From the NCBI GenBank assembly GCA_944392435.1, contig CALXWQ010000001.1, positions 1-35,895 of the forward strand: DNA of 35,895 bases, given 5' to 3'. Origin of the DNA: an uncultured Clostridia bacterium. Its GTDB lineage: Bacteria; Bacillota; Clostridia; TANB77; CAG-508. Made by a program: the position numbers and the translations under genes. The notes under the pieces are model-generated. The model made no database searches and was not told where the DNA came from. It saw only the letters and a list, made by a program, of their open reading frames with translations. Of this stretch, positions 2,727 to 23,467 are shown one piece after another (positions within the stretch are counted from its first letter, which is position 1; each line of letters starts with the position of its first letter).

Positions 2727-4304
2727 TTACTGTAATATTCCACTTAATTTATCTAATGCTCTATCTGCCAATTTTCCATATTTTAGTTTTTTATCTTTTA
2801 TTCTCTCAGGAAGTTCTGGTAATATTCCAAAATTCGCATTCATTGGTTGAAAGTTTTTGTTTTCGCTAGCAATATATTTTGATAAAGCACCTATCATTGT
2901 CTCTTTCGGAAATGTAATTTGTCGCATTAGGGACAGGCCTTTTCGCGACATATTTGTCGTTTTTATATTTGTCCTACTTTGCTCTTCTCTATTTAATCTT
3001 TCATACATTTCCACTGAATTTAATGCTGCAACTAATCCTGATGCTATTGATTCTACATATCCCTCTACACCAGTTATCTGTCCAGCGAAAAATATATTCC
3101 TATTTTTCTTTAGGTTATATGTTTCATCAAGTAATTCTGGTGAATTTATAAATGTATTTCTATGCATTACACCATATTTCGCAAAATCTGCATTTTGAAG
3201 TCCTGGTATTAAGCTAAATACTCTTTTTTGCTCTCCATATTTCAAATTTGTTTGAAAACCTACCATATTAAATAAATTTCCTTCACTATTGTCCTGTCTT
3301 AGCTGTACAATTGCATATGGTCTTTTACCTGTTCTAGGGTCTGTAAATCCAACTGGTTTTAGTGGGCCATATCTCAATGTGTCTATTCCTCTTTTTGCCA
3401 TTACTTCTATAGGCATACAACCTTCAAAAATCTCTCTTTTTTCAAAATTATGTAGTTCTACCACTTCTGCTTTTACAAGTTCATTCCAAAATTTCTCATA
3501 CTCTTCTTTATTCATTGGAAGATTTATATAGTTATTTTCATTACTATTTTTTATTCTTTCTTGCCACGTTTCTACATCTTCATCTTTACCTCTTTCTTGG
3601 CTATATCTATCTCCCCAAAAAGCAATACTCATATCTATGCTTTCTTTTTCTATTATAGGGGCTGCAGCATCATAGAAATGTAATCCCTCATCTCCTGTAA
3701 GCTTTACTATCTCCCAAGATAATGCATCTGAAGTTAGTGGACCTGTAGCAATAATTACTATTCCATCTTTTGAAAGTTGTTCTAATGAAATTACATCTTT
3801 TTGCTCAACACCGCATTCTATATTATTCTCTTTCGTTGATTTACTGTTTTCCATTTCTGTTGGCATAGACTTTATTTCATCATTATTATCTTTACTTTCC
3901 AAAAAATTTGTTTCTGTGTTTCTATCTCCACTTTTGCCTACTTCTTTCCTTATGATTTCCACATTTTCTAAACTTTCTAACTTTTTGGTTATCTCTTGTG
4001 AAAATCTTTCTCTATCTACAGCCAACGCTTGTCCTGCTGGAACAGCTACTTCATCCGCTGTTTTTATTAAAAGTGAATCCAACATGCGTAATTCTTCTTT
4101 TAACAATCCGCATGCATTTGTATGTAAATTTGATTTAAATGAATTGCTACATACAATTTCTGCTAAATTTGTATTACTATGTGCTGGTGAAAATTTATCT
4201 GGTTTCATTTCATAAAGCTTTACCTTTATTTCTCTTTTTGCAATTTGATATGCCGCTTCTGAGCCAGCTAATCCGCCACCTATTACTGTTATATATTCTT
4301 TCAT
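2727..4304 (-). CDS. trmFO: Methylenetetrahydrofolate--tRNA-(uracil54-C5)-methyltransferase TrmFO (Gid), with low-complexity insertions
   Basis: MKEYITVIGGGLAGSEAAYQIA (FAD dinucleotide fold), ...IATGPLTS..., FFAGQITGVEGYVESIASG, NFQPMNANFG. Start moved to ATG 4304 (GGAGG 4 nt upstream); the track's TTG 4322 contains that SD. Confidence 0.92.
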   Translation of the reverse strand: MKEYITVIGGGLAGSEAAYQIAKREIKVKLYEMKPDKFSPAHSNTNLAEIVCSNSFKSNLHTNACGLLKEELRMLDSLLIKTADEVAVPAGQALAVDRERFSQEITKKLESLENVEIIRKEVGKSGDRNTETNFLESKDNNDEIKSMPTEMENSKSTKENNIECGVEQKDVISLEQLSKDGIVIIATGPLTSDALSWEIVKLTGDEGLHFYDAAAPIIEKESIDMSIAFWGDRYSQERGKDEDVETWQERIKNSNENNYINLPMNKEEYEKFWNELVKAEVVELHNFEKREIFEGCMPIEVMAKRGIDTLRYGPLKPVGFTDPRTGKRPYAIVQLRQDNSEGNLFNMVGFQTNLKYGEQKRVFSLIPGLQNADFAKYGVMHRNTFINSPELLDETYNLKKNRNIFFAGQITGVEGYVESIASGLVAALNSVEMYERLNREEQSRTNIKTTNMSRKGLSLMRQITFPKETMIGALSKYIASENKNFQPMNANFGILPELPERIKDKKLKYGKLADRALDKLSGILQ

Positions 4305-4358
4305 ACTTCCTCCATTTTTCAAATCCTGCCTACAACTATTTACACAGCTATCGTTTTT

Positions 4359-4563
4359 AGTCTAGCAATGTATGTTTATAAATTCTCATTTGAGTGCTTA
4401 AGGTGGGGACCGACAAGTTACAGTCTGTAGAAAAAATACTCATGAATAAAAAACTTGTTTTTTATTCATGGTAGAAAGTATGCATATCTCTTGTGTTCTT
4501 TCTTACAGACTGTACGCAGCTTGGGGCCGAAAATGAGAATTTATAAACATACATTGCTAGACT
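4359..4563 (+). repeat. Family A nested-palindrome repeat, copy A1 (full length)
   Basis: Perfect 33-bp terminal inverted repeats AGTCTAGCAATGTATGTTTATAAATTCTCATTT (4359-4391 / 4531-4563). Left core TGAGTGCTTAAGGTGGGGACCGACAAG. Inner stem TACAGTCTGTA / TACAGACTGTA (4419-4429 / 4504-4514). Central 14-bp palindrome CATGAATAAAAAAC/GTTTTTTATTCATG (4441-4470). Right core GTACGCAGCTTGGGGCCGAAAA. Confidence 0.85.
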
Positions 4564-4583
4564 TTTATGAATAACTGTAGTAG

Positions 4584-4603
4584 AACAACGCCAAAATGCA
4601 ATT
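4584..4603 (+). repeat. Family B right-end relic
   Basis: AACAACGCCAAAATGCAATT is identical at 19 of 20 positions to the right end of copy B1 (13305-13324). Confidence 0.6.
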
Positions 4604-4615
4604 CTATTGCAACGG

Positions 4616-7588
4616 TTACTCAAACAATGCCATAATATCTTCCTTAGTAAGTTTATTTATAAATGTTTGCTCTGTAGAAAGCATTGCCTTTGCAAGGTTT
4701 GCTTTCTTTTGTTGCAATTCATAAATTCTCTCTTCTATAGAGTCCTTTGTAATTAGTTTGTACACTTGAACATTCTTTTTCTGTCCTATTCTGTATGTTC
4801 TATCTGTAGCCTGATTTTCTGCTGACAAATTCCACCATGGATCATAATGTATTACCATGTCAGCTCCTATTAAGTTGAGGCCTGTTCCACCTGCTTTAAG
4901 TGATATCAAAAACACTTTTATGTCGTCATTGTTGTTAAACTCCTCAACAAGTTTTATTCTATCTCCTACTTTGGTTTGTCCTGTTAATTTGAAGTACTTT
5001 ATATCTTCCTTTTTTAAGCTATTTTCTATGATTTCTAGCATGCTAGAATAACCTGAGAATAACAATATTTTGTGTCCAGATGCTATAGCATCTTTTAATA
5101 CTTCTATACATTGGTTTAGCTTGCTACTCTCTCCTTTATAGTTTGATATAAATAGAGATGGATGGCAACAAATTTGTCTTAATCTCATTAATAGTGACAA
5201 TATTTTGATTTGGCTTTTTTCAAATCCATTTTTGTTTAGTTCTTCTTTCACTTCTTGTCTAGCATTCGCCATATATGATTTATATATCTTTAATTGCTCA
5301 TCTTGCATTTCATTGTTAAGCACACTTATTGTTTTGTCTGGTAATTCAGTCAAAACTTGTTTTTTAGTTCTCCTTAAAATAAATGGCTCTATTAACATTT
5401 TTAATTTTTCCATAATAAAACTATCATTTTCTTTTACTATAGGAACTTCATAAGAGTCTTTAAATTTTTTGTAGCTAAATAAATAGCCTGGCATTATGAA
5501 GTCAAATATAGACCATAATTCTGATAATGAATTTTCAATAGGTGTACCGGTTAGTGCATACCTTGTCTCTGACCTTATTTCTTTAATTGCCTTTGCATTT
5601 TGAGTACTATTGTTCTTTATGTATTGGGCTTCATCTGCAATTATATACTTAAACTCATAATTTGCTTCTTTGTAATCTTCTATATCTCTTTTTAGCAAAT
5701 CATATGATGTAATTACTAAGTTGTATTTTTTTATACTTTTTATTTGATCTTTTCTCTCTTCTGCAGTCCCATGAATAACTAGTGTTTTTATACTTGGAGC
5801 AAATTTATCTATTTCACTCTTCCAATTCAATGAAAGTGAACTTGGGCAAACTACAATACTTGGTTTTGGATTTTTATTTTCTTTCAAATATGATAAGATA
5901 ACCGCTAATAACTGAACTGTTTTACCAAGTCCCATATCATCTGCAAGAATTCCTCCAAATTTGTAATTGTCCAATACTTTTAGCCATTCAAAACCTATTT
6001 TTTGATAATTTCTCAAACTTGTTTGCAAGCCTGCTGGAAGTTTTATCTCTTCCTCAATTTCCTTTTTGGATACTTGATTTACTATTTTCTTATATTCTTC
6101 ATTCTTAGAAACAGTAGTGTTCACTTTGTTCAATATCCTGTCTAAATACATGCTTCTAGAGATTGGAAGCCTAATTTCTCCTTTTTTTATTTCGTCATAA
6201 GTGATTTCCTCATTTTCAAGCAATCCTGTTATAAAGTCCATAGTCTCATTTTGCTCTAAATCTAGGAAGCTTCCATCTTTTAATCTATGATATTTCTTTT
6301 TTAGAGTGTACTTTTGCATTATATTTCTTATTTCTTTTATATCAAAATCCATATCTTGCAAATCTACTCTAAGCAAATCATTTTCTAGCTTAACACCTAT
6401 TGACCCAATTTTCGGCTTTCTTATTTCTCTTTTCTTAAAATTGTCTGTAGCTAAAACTTCAAATTTTTGCATATATTTTTCAATTTCTTCAGATAAAAAA
6501 TTGTAAATTTTCTCTTCATCAACTAAAATTAGTCTGCTATTTTCCTTATCTAGCATAAACCCTGTATTTACAAACACGTCTAGATACTCATTTTCTTTAG
6601 CAATATCTCTTGCAATAGTTATCTTCTCCTCTTTTAAAGGATTAAACTCGTACTCTCCATACACAAATTTTATATCAGCAGTTATATAGTTGTTTTTATC
6701 ATAGTCTAAATAAATTTTAACAAACAAATCCTCTGGTATATATTTATTAATTAAACTATCATCTAGTTTTTGCAATGATATTTTGCCCTTTAATTTAGGA
6801 TAAATCAATGAACAAAAATTAGGTAAATCTTCTCTTTTAAATCTTATTACTTCTGCATAATTTTCTTTATATATATCTAAAAGCTTTAATGTAGTATTTT
6901 CAAAATCCTTATCACATCTGTATAAAGATTTTCCTGTAAGTAAGTATATATATGATTTTCCTTTGAATATGTCATATGGAAAAACTTTTTTATTTGGAGT
7001 AATTTTATAGTTTCCATCTCTTTCTTGCTCTATAATAAAGTTTATATCTGGATTACTATTTTCAAAAGAAATTTTCTGCTCTACTGTATCTCTTTTGAAA
7101 AGGACTTTCTTTCCTTGCAATACATCAAATAGTTCGTCTAATCCAGTATTTGAAATAGTTATAAACTCATTACTCATAGTTCTATTATATTTGCTATAAC
7201 TTCCCACAGTTTCATTTGCATATTTAATTATTTCTGCATATTTCAAAACAAAGTTTAGCAATGGAAGACACTCTTTTTTGAAAGTTTCCTCTGTATGAAC
7301 GAACTCTAATTTGGGTCCATATTTATATACTTCTTTATTTAACATTCTTTCAAAAAATTCTGGTAAACTTTTTATTTGATATAACTGATTATCTCCAATC
7401 TTAAACTCTGCTTTCAATGTTTTATTAAATGTATCATATATTAATTTTGGCTCTATATTTAAATTATTTATTTTACTTTTTTCTTTCTCCTCTTGCTCTT
7501 TTTCATTATGATAAAAAGTATGCACAATCTGTTTAAATATCTTATATTGTTCTTCATTCCTATTCATTTTTAAGATATCCCTTCTCAT
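4616..7588 (-). CDS. SNF2-family DEAD/DEAH-box helicase with a long N-terminal accessory region (YwqA-like)
   Basis: Helicase motifs ADDMGLGKT (I), IADEAQYIKN (II), LTGTPIENS (III), and C-terminal ...LKAGGTGLNL...QATDRTYRIGQ. The first 520 aa or so are non-catalytic. The alternative ATG at 7567 has a better-placed AAGGGA. Confidence 0.9.
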   Translation of the reverse strand: MRRDILKMNRNEEQYKIFKQIVHTFYHNEKEQEEKEKSKINNLNIEPKLIYDTFNKTLKAEFKIGDNQLYQIKSLPEFFERMLNKEVYKYGPKLEFVHTEETFKKECLPLLNFVLKYAEIIKYANETVGSYSKYNRTMSNEFITISNTGLDELFDVLQGKKVLFKRDTVEQKISFENSNPDINFIIEQERDGNYKITPNKKVFPYDIFKGKSYIYLLTGKSLYRCDKDFENTTLKLLDIYKENYAEVIRFKREDLPNFCSLIYPKLKGKISLQKLDDSLINKYIPEDLFVKIYLDYDKNNYITADIKFVYGEYEFNPLKEEKITIARDIAKENEYLDVFVNTGFMLDKENSRLILVDEEKIYNFLSEEIEKYMQKFEVLATDNFKKREIRKPKIGSIGVKLENDLLRVDLQDMDFDIKEIRNIMQKYTLKKKYHRLKDGSFLDLEQNETMDFITGLLENEEITYDEIKKGEIRLPISRSMYLDRILNKVNTTVSKNEEYKKIVNQVSKKEIEEEIKLPAGLQTSLRNYQKIGFEWLKVLDNYKFGGILADDMGLGKTVQLLAVILSYLKENKNPKPSIVVCPSSLSLNWKSEIDKFAPSIKTLVIHGTAEERKDQIKSIKKYNLVITSYDLLKRDIEDYKEANYEFKYIIADEAQYIKNNSTQNAKAIKEIRSETRYALTGTPIENSLSELWSIFDFIMPGYLFSYKKFKDSYEVPIVKENDSFIMEKLKMLIEPFILRRTKKQVLTELPDKTISVLNNEMQDEQLKIYKSYMANARQEVKEELNKNGFEKSQIKILSLLMRLRQICCHPSLFISNYKGESSKLNQCIEVLKDAIASGHKILLFSGYSSMLEIIENSLKKEDIKYFKLTGQTKVGDRIKLVEEFNNNDDIKVFLISLKAGGTGLNLIGADMVIHYDPWWNLSAENQATDRTYRIGQKKNVQVYKLITKDSIEERIYELQQKKANLAKAMLSTEQTFINKLTKEDIMALFE

Positions 7589-21293: not shown

Positions 21294-21387
21294 GTGTTTT
21301 TTGAAAATTTTTCAAAAAATTTTTTTCAAAATGCTTGTGCCTCTATGGTTTGCGAACATTGGTTTTGTATTGTAAACATAATAAGAG

Positions 21388-21430
21388 CAGAATAATGCTT
21401 GCTTTTACAGTATTCTAAACATTATTCTGC
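21388..21430 (-). terminator. Terminator downstream of fic
   Basis: GCAGAATAATG / CATTATTCTGC 11-bp stem (21388-21398 / 21420-21430). On the minus strand it is followed by TCTTATTATGTTT. Confidence 0.5.
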
Positions 21431-21435
21431 CTTAT

Positions 21436-22035
21436 TTACGCTTTTTTTGTTAAACATTCATACAAAATCTTTGTTAAATCTTCTGTATCTACAATTGACT
21501 TTAAACATGCATCTAGGAATTCTTTAGGTGACACTTTTCTTAAATCTAATACATACTCATTTTTTAAAGCTAGCTCACGAATAAATTCCCTCGTTGTCCT
21601 TCCATTTCCCTCTCTATATGGATGTAGCACATTTAGTTCTGACAAATAGTACGCTAACCTTTCAGCAAGCTTTTCTTTTGATAAATTCTCTAAATAATTT
21701 TCTTTTTTTAATTCATCTAATAATCTTTCTAGCTCTGGCTCTATATATTCCCATTCTGCAAATCTGAATACTCCTTTCGCAATATTCTCGGTTCTATATT
21801 TCCCTGCAAAAGGATATATATCTTCAAATAAATATTTGTGAATTGAATTTATATGGTTTACATCAAAATTACCTATAATACCTTTTTGCATCAAAGCTAA
21901 AAGCTTTGCAGCTGTAATTTTTGCTTCATACTTTTGTAAAACCTTACTATCTCTTATATTTAATTTATTTATTAAAGTATTTGTATTTTCATAACAATAC
22001 TTTGAATCTCTTTCTTCATAAATATCTTTTCCCAT
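21436..22035 (-). CDS. fic: Fic-domain protein (class-I-like toxin of the FicT/VbhT type; no internal inhibitory motif seen)
   Basis: Active-site loop HPYREGNGRTTREF (HxFx(D/E)GNGRxxR with F to Y). N-terminal YCYENTNTLINKLNI resembles the VbhT/FicT start. Own promoter TTTCAA-17-TATAAT with TGG extension (22103-22075). No (S/T)xxxE(G/N) motif found by eye. Confidence 0.85.
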   Translation of the reverse strand: MGKDIYEERDSKYCYENTNTLINKLNIRDSKVLQKYEAKITAAKLLALMQKGIIGNFDVNHINSIHKYLFEDIYPFAGKYRTENIAKGVFRFAEWEYIEPELERLLDELKKENYLENLSKEKLAERLAYYLSELNVLHPYREGNGRTTREFIRELALKNEYVLDLRKVSPKEFLDACLKSIVDTEDLTKILYECLTKKA

Positions 22036-22139
22036 GTACTTTTCCTCTAATTATTGTCAATATGTGTTTTTGACATTATACCATATAATAAAATACTTTG
22101 AAATATTATTTTAAAAAATTGTTAATTTTTAGGTTACAG

Positions 22140-22233
22140 GATGTTAGAATTCACGGCTTTCCGATTTATAATTTAATAGAGAAAGAAACATCATTTTATA
22201 AAATGCAATCGGCAAGCCGTGAATTCTAACATC
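22140..22233. repeat. 27-bp inverted repeat with 40-nt spacer
   Basis: GATGTTAGAATTCACGGCTTTCCGATT (22140-22166) and AATCGGCAAGCCGTGAATTCTAACATC (22207-22233) are complementary at 26 of 27 positions. There is no adjacent T-run on either strand. Confidence 0.7.
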
Positions 22234-22263
22234 ACTTTAAAGCCATTAAATAATAGTAAAATT

Positions 22264-22944
22264 TTAATCAATTGTAGTACTTGTTCTTCCTGTACCAACC
22301 ACTGCTTCTTGTAATGCTCTCCAAGTATTGCATCCAATAATTCCATCTGCTGCAAGACCAACCCTTGTTTGATAACTTCTTACCGCATTTTGAGTTGCTG
22401 TTCCAAAAATCCCGTCTAGTCCACCAGTTCTATATCCTAATGTGTTCAAATCATCTTGAGCAATAAGTACATAAGTACTGATGCTTCCTCTTTTTAATAG
22501 AGGGAATCCTCCAGTTGAACAAGCTGGAGTTCCAAATCTTTTATCAAAGTGCACCCAAGTCGGCGTTAACGAAATTGGTTCTACAAACGACCACACTCCT
22601 GAATTATTTGCAGAATTCCATAACCTTGTTCTTTGTGCCTGAGAGAGTCTTTGCCCCACATCAAAAGCAGTTCCTGCATAATGTTGACTCTGATTTCCGT
22701 GTCCACCTTCCCATGGTCTTTTAAATGCAAAACCTACTGGAATAGCAGAACCATAAATGTATCTTTGGCTATTCCAACTCTGCATTGTTCTTTTGGTAGT
22801 CCATAAAGTAGATGAATTACTAGATCCCCTAAACTCTCTTACCTTTAGAGTTCCATTAGCATTATATGGCATCGGCTCATTTTCTCCTCTATAATATGTC
22901 TCCATACGGTCACTGTCATTATTAAATACTATTATTTTCGCCAT
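22264..22944 (-). CDS. M15-family (D-Ala-D-Ala carboxypeptidase fold) peptidase with a C-terminal PG_binding_1 domain
   Basis: GGHGNQSQHYAGTAFDV ... WVHFD resembles the H-x-D / H zinc ligands of peptidase M15. The C-terminal LGYRTGGLDGIFGTATQNAVRSYQTRVGLAADGIIG is a peptidoglycan-binding repeat. Start moved to ATG 22944 (GGAGG 9 nt upstream). No signal peptide is seen. Confidence 0.8.
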   Translation of the reverse strand: MAKIIVFNNDSDRMETYYRGENEPMPYNANGTLKVREFRGSSNSSTLWTTKRTMQSWNSQRYIYGSAIPVGFAFKRPWEGGHGNQSQHYAGTAFDVGQRLSQAQRTRLWNSANNSGVWSFVEPISLTPTWVHFDKRFGTPACSTGGFPLLKRGSISTYVLIAQDDLNTLGYRTGGLDGIFGTATQNAVRSYQTRVGLAADGIIGCNTWRALQEAVVGTGRTSTTID

Positions 22945-23016
22945 AAAAATAATCCTCCCCAAATATTCTGTTTTTTATATATTATGGTAAAATTATTTTT
23001 TTGTTACAAATTCCAA

Positions 23017-23125
23017 ATTATATGTTGCCAAATAATAGTTTTATTAGCTTTCATATGCTAAAATGCTGGTAGTCGGCATTTTAGTACAGCAAAACTAATA
23101 AAGCCATTATATAGCAACGTAATAT
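23017..23125. repeat. About 109-bp imperfect palindrome in the divergent promoter region
   Basis: The arms 23017-23066 and 23076-23125 are largely complementary, for example GTTGCCAAATAATAGTTTTATTAG vs CTAATAAAGCCATTATATAGCAAC. The centre is CTAAAATGC-TGGTAGTCG-GCATTTTAG. Confidence 0.6.
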
Positions 23126-23224
23126 ATAATGTTTTTCGCTATTTTACTGGACTTTTTGCTGTTTTTGTGGTATAATATATATGTAAATGGTTTTTAATCA
23201 TTAAAAAATTTGGAGGATAAAAAT

Positions 23225-23389
23225 ATGTTTAATGAAGATATTTTTAATTTTAATATAGATAATATAAAAAATGATTTAGCAATAGAAGGTATGACAATTA
23301 GTGATGAAGATGTGAATTTGTTTAAACAATTTGCAAACGAAGAAATTGACATGCCTAATTTGATTCAAACTATAAAAAATGAAATTTAA
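23225..23389 (+). CDS. VbhA-like small antitoxin (54 aa), not in the supplied ORF track
   Basis: Hand translation: MFNEDIFNFNIDNIKNDLAIEGMTISDEDVNLFKQFANEEIDMPNLIQTIKNEI. GGAGG lies 8 nt before the ATG. Promoter TGGACT-17-TATAAT with TGG extension (23148-23176); terminator follows. LAIEG plus downstream helix resembles VbhA as I remember it (...ASQRLEGLEP...IKDLMERIKREEI). Confidence 0.6.
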   Translation: MFNEDIFNFNIDNIKNDLAIEGMTISDEDVNLFKQFANEEIDMPNLIQTIKNEI

Positions 23390-23416
23390 TGTTTTAAAAC
23401 TCCTTTTTATTTTTAT

Positions 23417-23447
23417 AAAAGCCCTTAGATTTTTTCTAAGAGCTTTT
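23417..23447. terminator. Bidirectional terminator between the vbhA-like gene and the sortase gene
   Basis: AAAAGCCCTTAGA / TCTAAGAGCTTTT (one mismatch, 5-nt loop), flanked by T-runs in both reading directions. Confidence 0.65.
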
Positions 23448-23467
23448 ATATTATATATTTTTCTATT

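Follow-up and report, generated by a model that had tools for sequence, protein, structure and literature searches.

Fic proteins of classes II and III carry an inhibitory (S/T)xxxE(G/N) helix inside the Fic polypeptide, whereas those of class I do not, and class I systems are partly defined by an antitoxin gene that lies directly upstream of the toxin gene. Here we analyse a locus on a stretch of 35,895 nucleotides (nt) from an uncultured Clostridia bacterium (contig CALXWQ010000001.1 of assembly GCA_944392435.1), hereafter the window; all coordinates follow the window numbering, 1-35895. On its minus strand the window carries a fic gene (21436-22035), predicted from sequence to encode a class I-type AMP-transferase of the FicT/VbhT kind with 199 amino acids (aa), and on its plus strand a candidate FicA/VbhA-like antitoxin gene (23225-23389) for a protein of 54 aa, MFNEDIFNFNIDNIKNDLAIEGMTISDEDVNLFKQFANEEIDMPNLIQTIKNEI. 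The small gene lies 1,189 nt (~1.2 kb) from the start of fic, and a gene for a peptidoglycan (PG)-binding protein stands between the two. From the orthology and synteny of the two genes, the conserved motif, the selection acting on both and the direction in which the rearrangements ran, we consider it likely that the two genes encode a trans-acting class I pair of the FicT/FicA (VbhT/VbhA) kind and that fixed chromosomal rearrangements have separated them.

In the described complexes, the Glu of the inhibitory helix is tied by a salt bridge to R2, the Fic motif's second arginine, and the Ser or Thr of the helix hydrogen-bonds the same arginine (PMC5033356). The Glu out-competes the γ-phosphate of ATP for R2, and the α-phosphate is left in a position where the target hydroxyl cannot attack it (PMC3667792). 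FicA proteins have been described as having a three-helix topology with the inhibitory Glu at the end of helix 1 (PMC8401265). The topoisomerase subunits GyrB and ParE are AMPylated by class I toxins (PMC5033356, PMC8401265), and one class I toxin-antitoxin complex is a deAMPylase that requires the Glu of its antitoxin, Glu28 of AntF (PMC13327609).

The 199-aa protein matches the Pfam Fic family with an E-value (E) of 9.8e-19 (68.4 bits, cut-off 24), and a regular-expression match places the signature HPYREGNGRTTR at residues 138-149, from His138 to Arg149 (21589-21624, minus strand). The signature is intact, with a Tyr at the Phe position of HxFx(D/E)GNGRxxR; by its role in the known complexes, Arg149 corresponds to R2, the partner of the inhibitory Glu (PMC5033356, PMC3667792). 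A sequence-only reading of the window had given both open reading frames (ORFs) at the above positions, had called the catalytic loop intact and had described the protein as class I-like, and all three statements hold. The top match in the PDB is the FIC domain of VbhT (3zcb_A, E 1.9e-34, residues 6-191 of the 199 aligned), and EcFicT (5jfz) matches at 2.2e-26. Fic-1 (8wt0) is among the top matches both by sequence and by fold, and in the structural comparison the best matches were class I toxins that had been solved together with their antitoxins. In NCBIfam, the protein scores 149.3 bits against the VbhT model (NF045983, 1.7e-43; equivalog cut-off 800) and 137.2 bits against the E. coli Fic model (NF007672, 5.5e-40; equivalog cut-off 181). 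Both scores fall below the cut-offs, and we classify the protein by sequence as a relative of VbhT and of E. coli Fic and as an equivalog of neither. Its AlphaFold2 model, with a predicted local distance difference test (pLDDT) score of 69, a poor N-terminal half and a root-mean-square deviation of ~13 Å to VbhT, contributes nothing beyond the sequence alignment.

The claim that this Fic protein lacks an inhibitory motif of its own was also confirmed, as the regular-expression scan of the 199 residues found no strict (S/T)xxxE(G/N) pattern. A relaxed pattern returned just ELKKEN and ENYLEN, at residues 108-117, and the stretch of VbhT aligned to them has no such motif. Because residues 6-191 are taken up by the match to the VbhT FIC domain, only the residues outside that range are left, and there is no space for an internal inhibitory helix. 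Class III Fic proteins match the window protein in their core, at E-values from 3e-23 to 3e-16, and are of similar length; the alignment to the class III protein EfFic (5nv5), however, stops at residue 179 of its 207-residue chain, which indicates that the window protein is without the C-terminal part that holds the inhibitory helix in class III. As judged from sequence, two features of class I FicT proteins are therefore present, namely a signature-bearing FIC domain and the absence of an inhibitory helix from the same polypeptide. The third, an antitoxin gene immediately upstream in one operon, is absent from the window, as is the two-gene operon that forms part of the definition of type II toxin-antitoxin systems.

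That the small gene is real can be seen from its 193 close homologues, from gene calls on more than 100 contigs and, within the lineage that shares the split layout, from a ratio of non-synonymous to synonymous substitution rates (dN/dS) of 0.02-0.07. The between-species dS within this lineage is 0.33-0.75. For fic, dN/dS against the two sister species with the same layout (loci L013 and L014) is 0.075-0.094; the values of both genes are comparable to those of neighbouring housekeeping genes, and the Fic signature is intact in all four species with the split layout. No other candidate antitoxin was found beside fic, in agreement with the sequence-only reading: none of the ORFs abutting fic has a strict (S/T)xxxE(G/N) motif, and a profile of the small family, searched against all 883 stop-to-stop ORFs of the window, found only that of the small gene itself (23198-23386, E 1.6e-25), with the next at 0.29.

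The equivalent of the inhibitory motif in the small protein is D17-L-A-I-E21-G22 (23273-23290), at the C-terminal end of predicted helix 1. Glu21 is conserved without exception in 156 loci; four residues earlier, Asp occurs in 122 of them, Ser in 32 and Thr in 2, and one residue later Gly occurs in 92, Asn in 36 and Asp in 26. The VbhA-like layout with a retained Glu-Gly, as originally proposed, is supported by the invariant Glu, while the view of Asp as an oddity of this gene is not sustained: Asp at the Ser/Thr position is the majority state of the clade. VbhA and FicA antitoxins are small, with ~55-65 aa and an up-and-down fold of three helices. In the AlphaFold2 model of the small protein, which is of low confidence (mean pLDDT 65), helices span residues 11-20, 27-36 and 43-53, and E21-G22 comes right after the first, in agreement with the Glu followed by Gly or Asn that ends helix 1 in VbhA and FicA. 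We also considered whether the change from Phe to Tyr in the Fic motif is coupled to the change from Ser to Asp in the antitoxin; this was rejected, as the two changes do not go together.

The relationship between the two genes is clearest in the genomes of relatives. One genome per species was scanned, giving 77 loci, all from uncultured gut Clostridia, in which six neighbouring proteins were mapped. The orthologue P0119, 85% identical to the small protein, is encoded directly upstream of a 198-aa Fic gene, on the same strand and with an 11-base overlap at the start. The synteny around it is that of the window, and the order reads FtsH, a penicillin-binding protein (PBP), RsmA, sortase, PG-binding gene, small gene, Fic, MraZ, RsmH. 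Loci of this kind are L001-L004, in which the gene of the 85%-identical orthologue runs into the beginning of the fic orthologue within these flanks. We distinguished four layouts among the 77 species loci. In layout A (~40 loci, including all the most distant relatives), the small gene precedes Fic, adjacent and on the same strand; in layout B (~20 loci), Fic precedes the small gene, again adjacent and on the same strand; layout W is the split layout of the window (4 of the loci are split), found in L013, L014 and, as a variant, in L024; and in layout C (~13 loci), the small gene has no Fic within 6 kb.

A search anchored on Fic gave 80 loci from metagenomes, ~70 of them with enough upstream DNA, and in ~65 of these ~70 an ORF of the small family lies directly upstream of Fic on the same strand. 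These pairs sit in other chromosomal contexts, for example next to metK or a DHH phosphoesterase gene. Fic relatives at 48-51% identity have upstream ORFs with a canonical SLAIEG or SMAMEG, and SMEMEN also occurs among the canonical-register antitoxins of distant Fic relatives. The operon expected of class I systems is thus found at the orthologous loci of ~40 related species and at ~65 metagenome loci. The proposal of a split, trans-acting pair is supported by these data, since the orthologue of the small gene sits upstream of fic in most relatives, the Glu is invariant, and profile searches link its family to proteins that pass the VbhA threshold of Pfam, as described next.

For the window protein by itself, this link is weak; it holds transitively, through the sequences of its family. 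Three profiles were used, built from the close homologues (A2), the small family (A3) and a broader family (A4). Profile A3, searched against 1.84 billion representative proteins, gave 111 hits; 40 of these, with 22-59% identity to the window protein, were aligned, and Glu21 is the sole invariant column. The most distant family members have Ser or Thr in the motif (SMSFEG, SLAIEG, SFAVEG, TFAIEG, TLAMEG, TMAIEN). Two proteins reached by this profile, P0221 (E 1.5e-5) and P0231 (E 1.8e-4), pass the gathering score of Pfam VbhA with 26.6 and 26.9 bits, respectively, and two further distant members miss that threshold by about one bit or less; VbhA is matched by 14 of the 40 family representatives. 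With profile A4, BiaA (5eu0_B) is the second-best match in the PDB (E 0.033), in an alignment that spans the Glu-Gly, and a comparison with VbhA by hhalign places E21-G22 on E24-G25 of VbhA (P 0.021). A search of the PDB by phmmer with the window protein returned no VbhA, FicA or BiaA, and a second word-based search, to which a distant family member had been added, brought few gains. In three proteins (P0141, P0197 and P0132), the small domain is joined to other sequence: a 314-aa RHS/YD-repeat-like protein carries it at its C-terminal end, in a 159-aa protein it is joined to the C-terminal half of a Fic domain, and in a 232-aa protein to unrelated sequence. These joins may be real fusions, deletions or gene-call chimeras.

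Several results weigh against reading the two proteins as an antitoxin and its toxin. Scored directly, the window protein reaches 13.5 bits against Pfam VbhA (PF18495; E 0.075) and misses the gathering threshold of 25.9, so that the proposed profile link to VbhA/FicA stands by way of P0221 and P0231 and fails as a direct match. Profile A2 found no VbhA, FicA or BiaA in the PDB, and a Foldseek search with the low-confidence model of the small protein was not significant, with VbhA at rank 4 (E 6). The Ser or Thr that VbhA and FicA have four residues before the Glu is replaced by Asp17, and the Phe of the Fic motif is Tyr in the window lineage. The promoter assignments given below are consensus matches only. 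In addition, the small gene is retained in ~13 species that lack a Fic gene within 6 kb, and the selection on it is purifying (omega ~0.1-0.3); among these orphans, those of L051, L055-L058, L062-L064, L066, L071, L074 and L076 have an intact DLAIEG. The small protein may therefore act with another partner or in another role, or fic may lie at a greater distance in those genomes. Conversely, L107 (4531-5124) and L164 (5959-6408) hold intact-looking Fic genes without an upstream ORF of the small family, a possible result of antitoxin loss or relocation. The Fic proteins of L107 and L164 are 64-65% identical to that of the window, and a different large ORF ends just before each gene. The orphan small gene of L062 (6001-6174) lies between TrmL-like and glutamyl-tRNA synthetase-like genes.

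These orphans on both sides, together with the weak direct link to VbhA and the promiscuity of the Bartonella BiaA antitoxins, which act on several Fic proteins (PMC8401265), speak for a reading in which the Fic protein of the window is uninhibited or controlled otherwise and the 54-aa protein acts alone or with a different partner. We regard this as quite improbable. More than 100 loci, from several unrelated contexts, have members of the two families side by side, the invariant Glu stands in the register of the inhibitory motif, and the window offers neither another VbhA-like ORF nor an internal inhibitory motif in Fic. Moreover, harm would be expected from an uninhibited Fic protein whose motif is canonical, as has been demonstrated with other class I toxins (PMC3667792), yet fic is conserved, with a dN/dS of ~0.08.

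The origin of the split layout was traced in neighbour-joining trees of MraZ, RsmH, sortase and RsmA, to which Fic was either added or not. In these trees, layout A is ancestral and paraphyletic, and B and W unite in a single clade (bootstrap 99-100%). Nested inside B is a monophyletic group (100%) of the window lineage, L013 and L014; B excluding the window lineage is monophyletic in just 0-8% of replicates. The split layout is therefore derived and not primitive, and the order of events was from operon to reversed order to split. Relative to L001, the segment 22266-23386, which holds the PG-binding gene and the small gene, is inverted between collinear flanks. A one-step inversion of this block from the layout of L001 was rejected: because the phylogeny puts the window lineage inside the reversed-order clade, the route took more than one step. 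L024 arrived at a split layout on its own. There, at 3209-5091, fic is ~1.9 kb away from the PG-binding gene, with a 250-aa ORF (4136-4888) in the interval, and the PG-binding gene stands in tandem with the small gene.

The inverted segment, in a locus that has been repeatedly rearranged across species, also raises the question of an assembly artefact or of one state of a phase-variable invertible segment. We consider either to be very improbable. At least six independent metagenome assemblies share the layout, as do the two sister species L013 and L014 at a dS of 0.4-0.75, so that the survey of relatives suggested by the sequence-only reading shows a split that is kept within this lineage, while most relatives are canonical. 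For the window species, 22 contigs were read and none shows the opposite orientation; at the edges of the rearranged segment, inverted repeats are missing from the window and from L001, L013, L024 and L047, and there is no recombinase gene near the pair. A mechanism by an invertible switch was rejected on the basis of the missing inverted repeats and the lack of orientation polymorphism among the species contigs. The rearrangements are thus fixed and represent neither a switch nor an assembly error. Three contigs of the window species, L173 (1-8312), L178 (3-3775) and L179 (82-8868), show a further difference: the PG-binding gene is shortened to 102 aa (the part concerned corresponds to the window from ~22640 leftwards), the small gene and its promoter are intact, and an island abuts the short PG-binding gene where fic and mraZ stand in the window. 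The island encodes Lactamase_B, DUF3006, an MmeI-type restriction-modification enzyme, a HATPase_c_3 protein and an HNH protein, and the contigs end before the stretch beyond it in which fic may persist.

The region upstream of the small gene is kept across all layouts. The promoter scan gave a candidate promoter at 23148-23176 (plus strand; TGGACT-17 nt-TATAAT, with TGTGG directly before the -10 hexamer), and a GGAGG ribosome-binding site read from the sequence lies at 23212-23216, 8 nt before the ATG; the extended -10 promoter and the GGAGG that had been described at this gene are both in place. A 40-nt element at this position has 85-97% DNA identity in nearly all of the loci L001-L169, and it is retained even where the proteins are only ~50% identical, including distant loci in other genomic contexts. 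In the alignment, the element reads T.GA.TTTT......TTTTGTGGTATAATA, then TGTAG (23145-23185 in the window), a near-consensus sigma-A promoter, and such non-coding conservation is unusually strong. For fic alone, the scan gave a candidate promoter at 22075-22102 (minus strand; TTCAAA-16 nt-TATAAT, with TG), particular to the window species. It is a consensus match only, in an AT-rich region that gave 19 sites where chance alone would give 13. The divergent region between the PG-binding gene and the small gene holds, at 23021-23121, an imperfect palindrome of 46 nt (78% complementary) that is specific to the species and lies upstream of both candidate promoters.

For the likely trans-acting FicT/FicA pair, we infer binding, inhibition, target and promoter strengths as follows. 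The 54-aa protein would be a three-helix inhibitor of the FicA type that most likely binds helix alpha1 of Fic and sets Glu21 against Arg149, the R2 of HPYREGNGRTTR. Glu21 would keep the γ-phosphate of ATP from its productive position, and AMP transfer would be blocked; Asp17 most likely replaces the contact that Ser or Thr makes with R2. By analogy with Fic-1-AntF, the complex may also strip AMP from the target, which is probably GyrB or ParE. The promoter of the small gene would drive both genes in the canonical layout and the inhibitor alone in layouts B and W, so that the antitoxin would have kept a strong promoter and the toxin would depend on its own, weaker promoter or on read-through from the PG-binding gene. 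Under such an arrangement the supply of inhibitor should exceed that of toxin, which would account for the tolerance of the split. The loss of the strong promoter by the toxin rather than by the inhibitor is the safe direction for a rearrangement. Furthermore, we suggest that an inhibitor of the FicA type is not tied to autoregulation of the operon, as it has no DNA-binding domain.

The position of the pair in the genome allows another interpretation of the same two proteins, namely a vertically inherited housekeeping switch and no addiction module. Free Fic would AMPylate, for example, gyrase or topoisomerase IV, the complex of Fic and inhibitor would take the AMP off again, and separate promoters would set a ratio of Fic to inhibitor that tunes DNA topology or cell division, which would give meaning to the place beside mraZ at the head of the dcw cluster. 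In ~60 species of one clade the module is placed between sortase gene and mraZ, and its phylogeny follows that of the flanking genes; purifying selection on both genes is strong, the locus tolerates three different gene orders, and no mobile-element genes flank the inspected pairs. Likewise, E. coli FicTA is vertically inherited and has been proposed to have a specific physiological role (PMC5033356). On the other hand, related pairs at other chromosomal sites make the position beside mraZ a lineage-specific one, and the loss of Fic from the locus in ~13 species argues against an essential role. We hold this interpretation to be unlikely as an account of its own; it refines the explanation by a rearranged class I pair and does not exclude it.

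Across a clade of gut Clostridia with small genomes, the pair has been passed on vertically at the head of the cell-wall and division (mraZ) cluster, and its genes have been uncoupled stepwise, from the operon through the reversed order to opposite strands with a gene between, and in some species to the inhibitor alone. A related proposal, to which we assign a low probability, is that the pair has ceased to act as an addiction module and serves as a tunable AMPylation/deAMPylation switch on a housekeeping target, two separate promoters setting the ratio of toxin to inhibitor. Within this proposal, the DxxxEG inhibitor possibly has a role independent of Fic where it is kept alone.

The remaining features of the region agree in part with their first description. 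The small gene had been called the only gene on the plus strand, which fits the finding that every long non-nested ORF of the window lies on the minus strand (the dcw cluster, ftsH, dnaB, rplI and others). The gene between fic and the small gene (22264-22944/22962, minus strand; 226 aa, and called with this length in public assemblies) had been taken for an M15/PG-binding peptidase: the C-terminal PG_binding_1 domain is confirmed by Pfam (2.7e-15), and the M15 label is not, since the N-terminal domain matches nothing in Pfam or the PDB, where only the PG-binding domain finds a match. The flanks of the locus are the sortase gene, which is convergent with the small ORF and comes after it, and mraZ after fic. 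Between the convergent small gene and sortase gene, an inverted repeat forms a hairpin at 23414-23450 (-16.2 kcal/mol, z -4.6), which is likely a two-way terminator; the terminator that had been placed after the small gene thus agrees with the folding, while the hairpin did not pass the terminator scan. A long hairpin at 22140-22233 (minus strand), between the PG-binding gene and fic, has 27-nt arms that are 96% complementary and a 40-nt loop; the 228-nt intergenic RNA around it folds at -54 kcal/mol (z -5.4). It is confined to the window species, and no T run comes directly after it. An imperfect hairpin at 21374-21443 (minus strand; 27-nt arms, 74% complementary) includes the stop codon of fic and the bases that directly follow it, ahead of the mraZ region. 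Scans of the whole window found no tRNA gene and no Rfam family.

Searches based on adjacency would call the Fic protein of the window an orphan, uninhibited toxin and would leave the 54-aa gene functionless. The locus shows that the pair can survive for long as separate transcription units under strong purifying selection, and for a large group of gut Clostridia it extends the inhibitory motif to (S/T/D)xxxE(G/N/D). The four gene arrangements at one chromosomal site form a natural series that could be used for the question of how a safe toxin-to-antitoxin ratio is maintained. It is important to state that the gain lies mainly in better annotation and in this evolutionary series, with no new mechanism shown; the locus is a modest variation on a well-known system, and a FicA protein that acts in trans has a precedent in BiaA (PMC8401265).

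Among the known systems, the class III proteins (NmFic and the Enterococcus faecalis Fic, 5nv5) resemble the Fic protein of the window in core and length and differ from it by their own C-terminal inhibitory helix, whereas the window protein ends without the motif. The Bartonella BiaA/Bep system (5eu0, 5nh2) also has FicA-type proteins that act in trans, one or two BiaA serving several Fic-domain proteins (PMC8401265), and BiaA is the PDB antitoxin matched by the broad family profile. The Beps, however, are secreted, host-targeting effectors with OB and BID domains, in contrast to the single chromosomal Fic found here, which has no secretion context. Fic-1/AntF of Pseudomonas (8wt0) is a class I pair whose toxin is close to the window protein; its complex reverses the AMPylation of GyrB by means of the antitoxin Glu (PMC13327609), and the same may apply here. 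The window pair differs in the Asp variant of its motif. EcFicT/EcFicA (Fic/YhfG; 5jff, 5jfz) likewise consists of a stand-alone Fic protein of ~200 aa and an antitoxin of ~55 aa, and it is inherited vertically at a fixed chromosomal site (PMC5033356), as is the module beside mraZ across its clade. EcFicT-like proteins have a hydrophobic residue at R1 and are thought not to be competent for adenylylation (PMC5033356), whereas the window protein keeps the full HPxREGNGRxxR, and ecficA is always directly upstream of its toxin gene. VbhT/VbhA of Bartonella schoenbuchensis (3shg, 3zc7, 3zcb) provides the closest FIC domain in the PDB and a canonical signature, and VbhA is similar to the small protein in size, in three predicted helices and in the Glu-Gly at the end of helix 1, in the register of E24-G25. 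VbhT has an extra C-terminal BID domain, whereas the window protein is a FIC domain alone; vbhA lies directly upstream in the operon, while the antitoxin gene of the window lies 1.2 kb off on the opposite strand; and the first position of the motif is Ser in VbhA and Asp here, with a marginal similarity between the two antitoxins. Taken together, sequence comparison supports a locus that would work like, and descend from, a class I FicTA system, and that departs from it in the layout of the operon and in the Ser/Thr of the motif.

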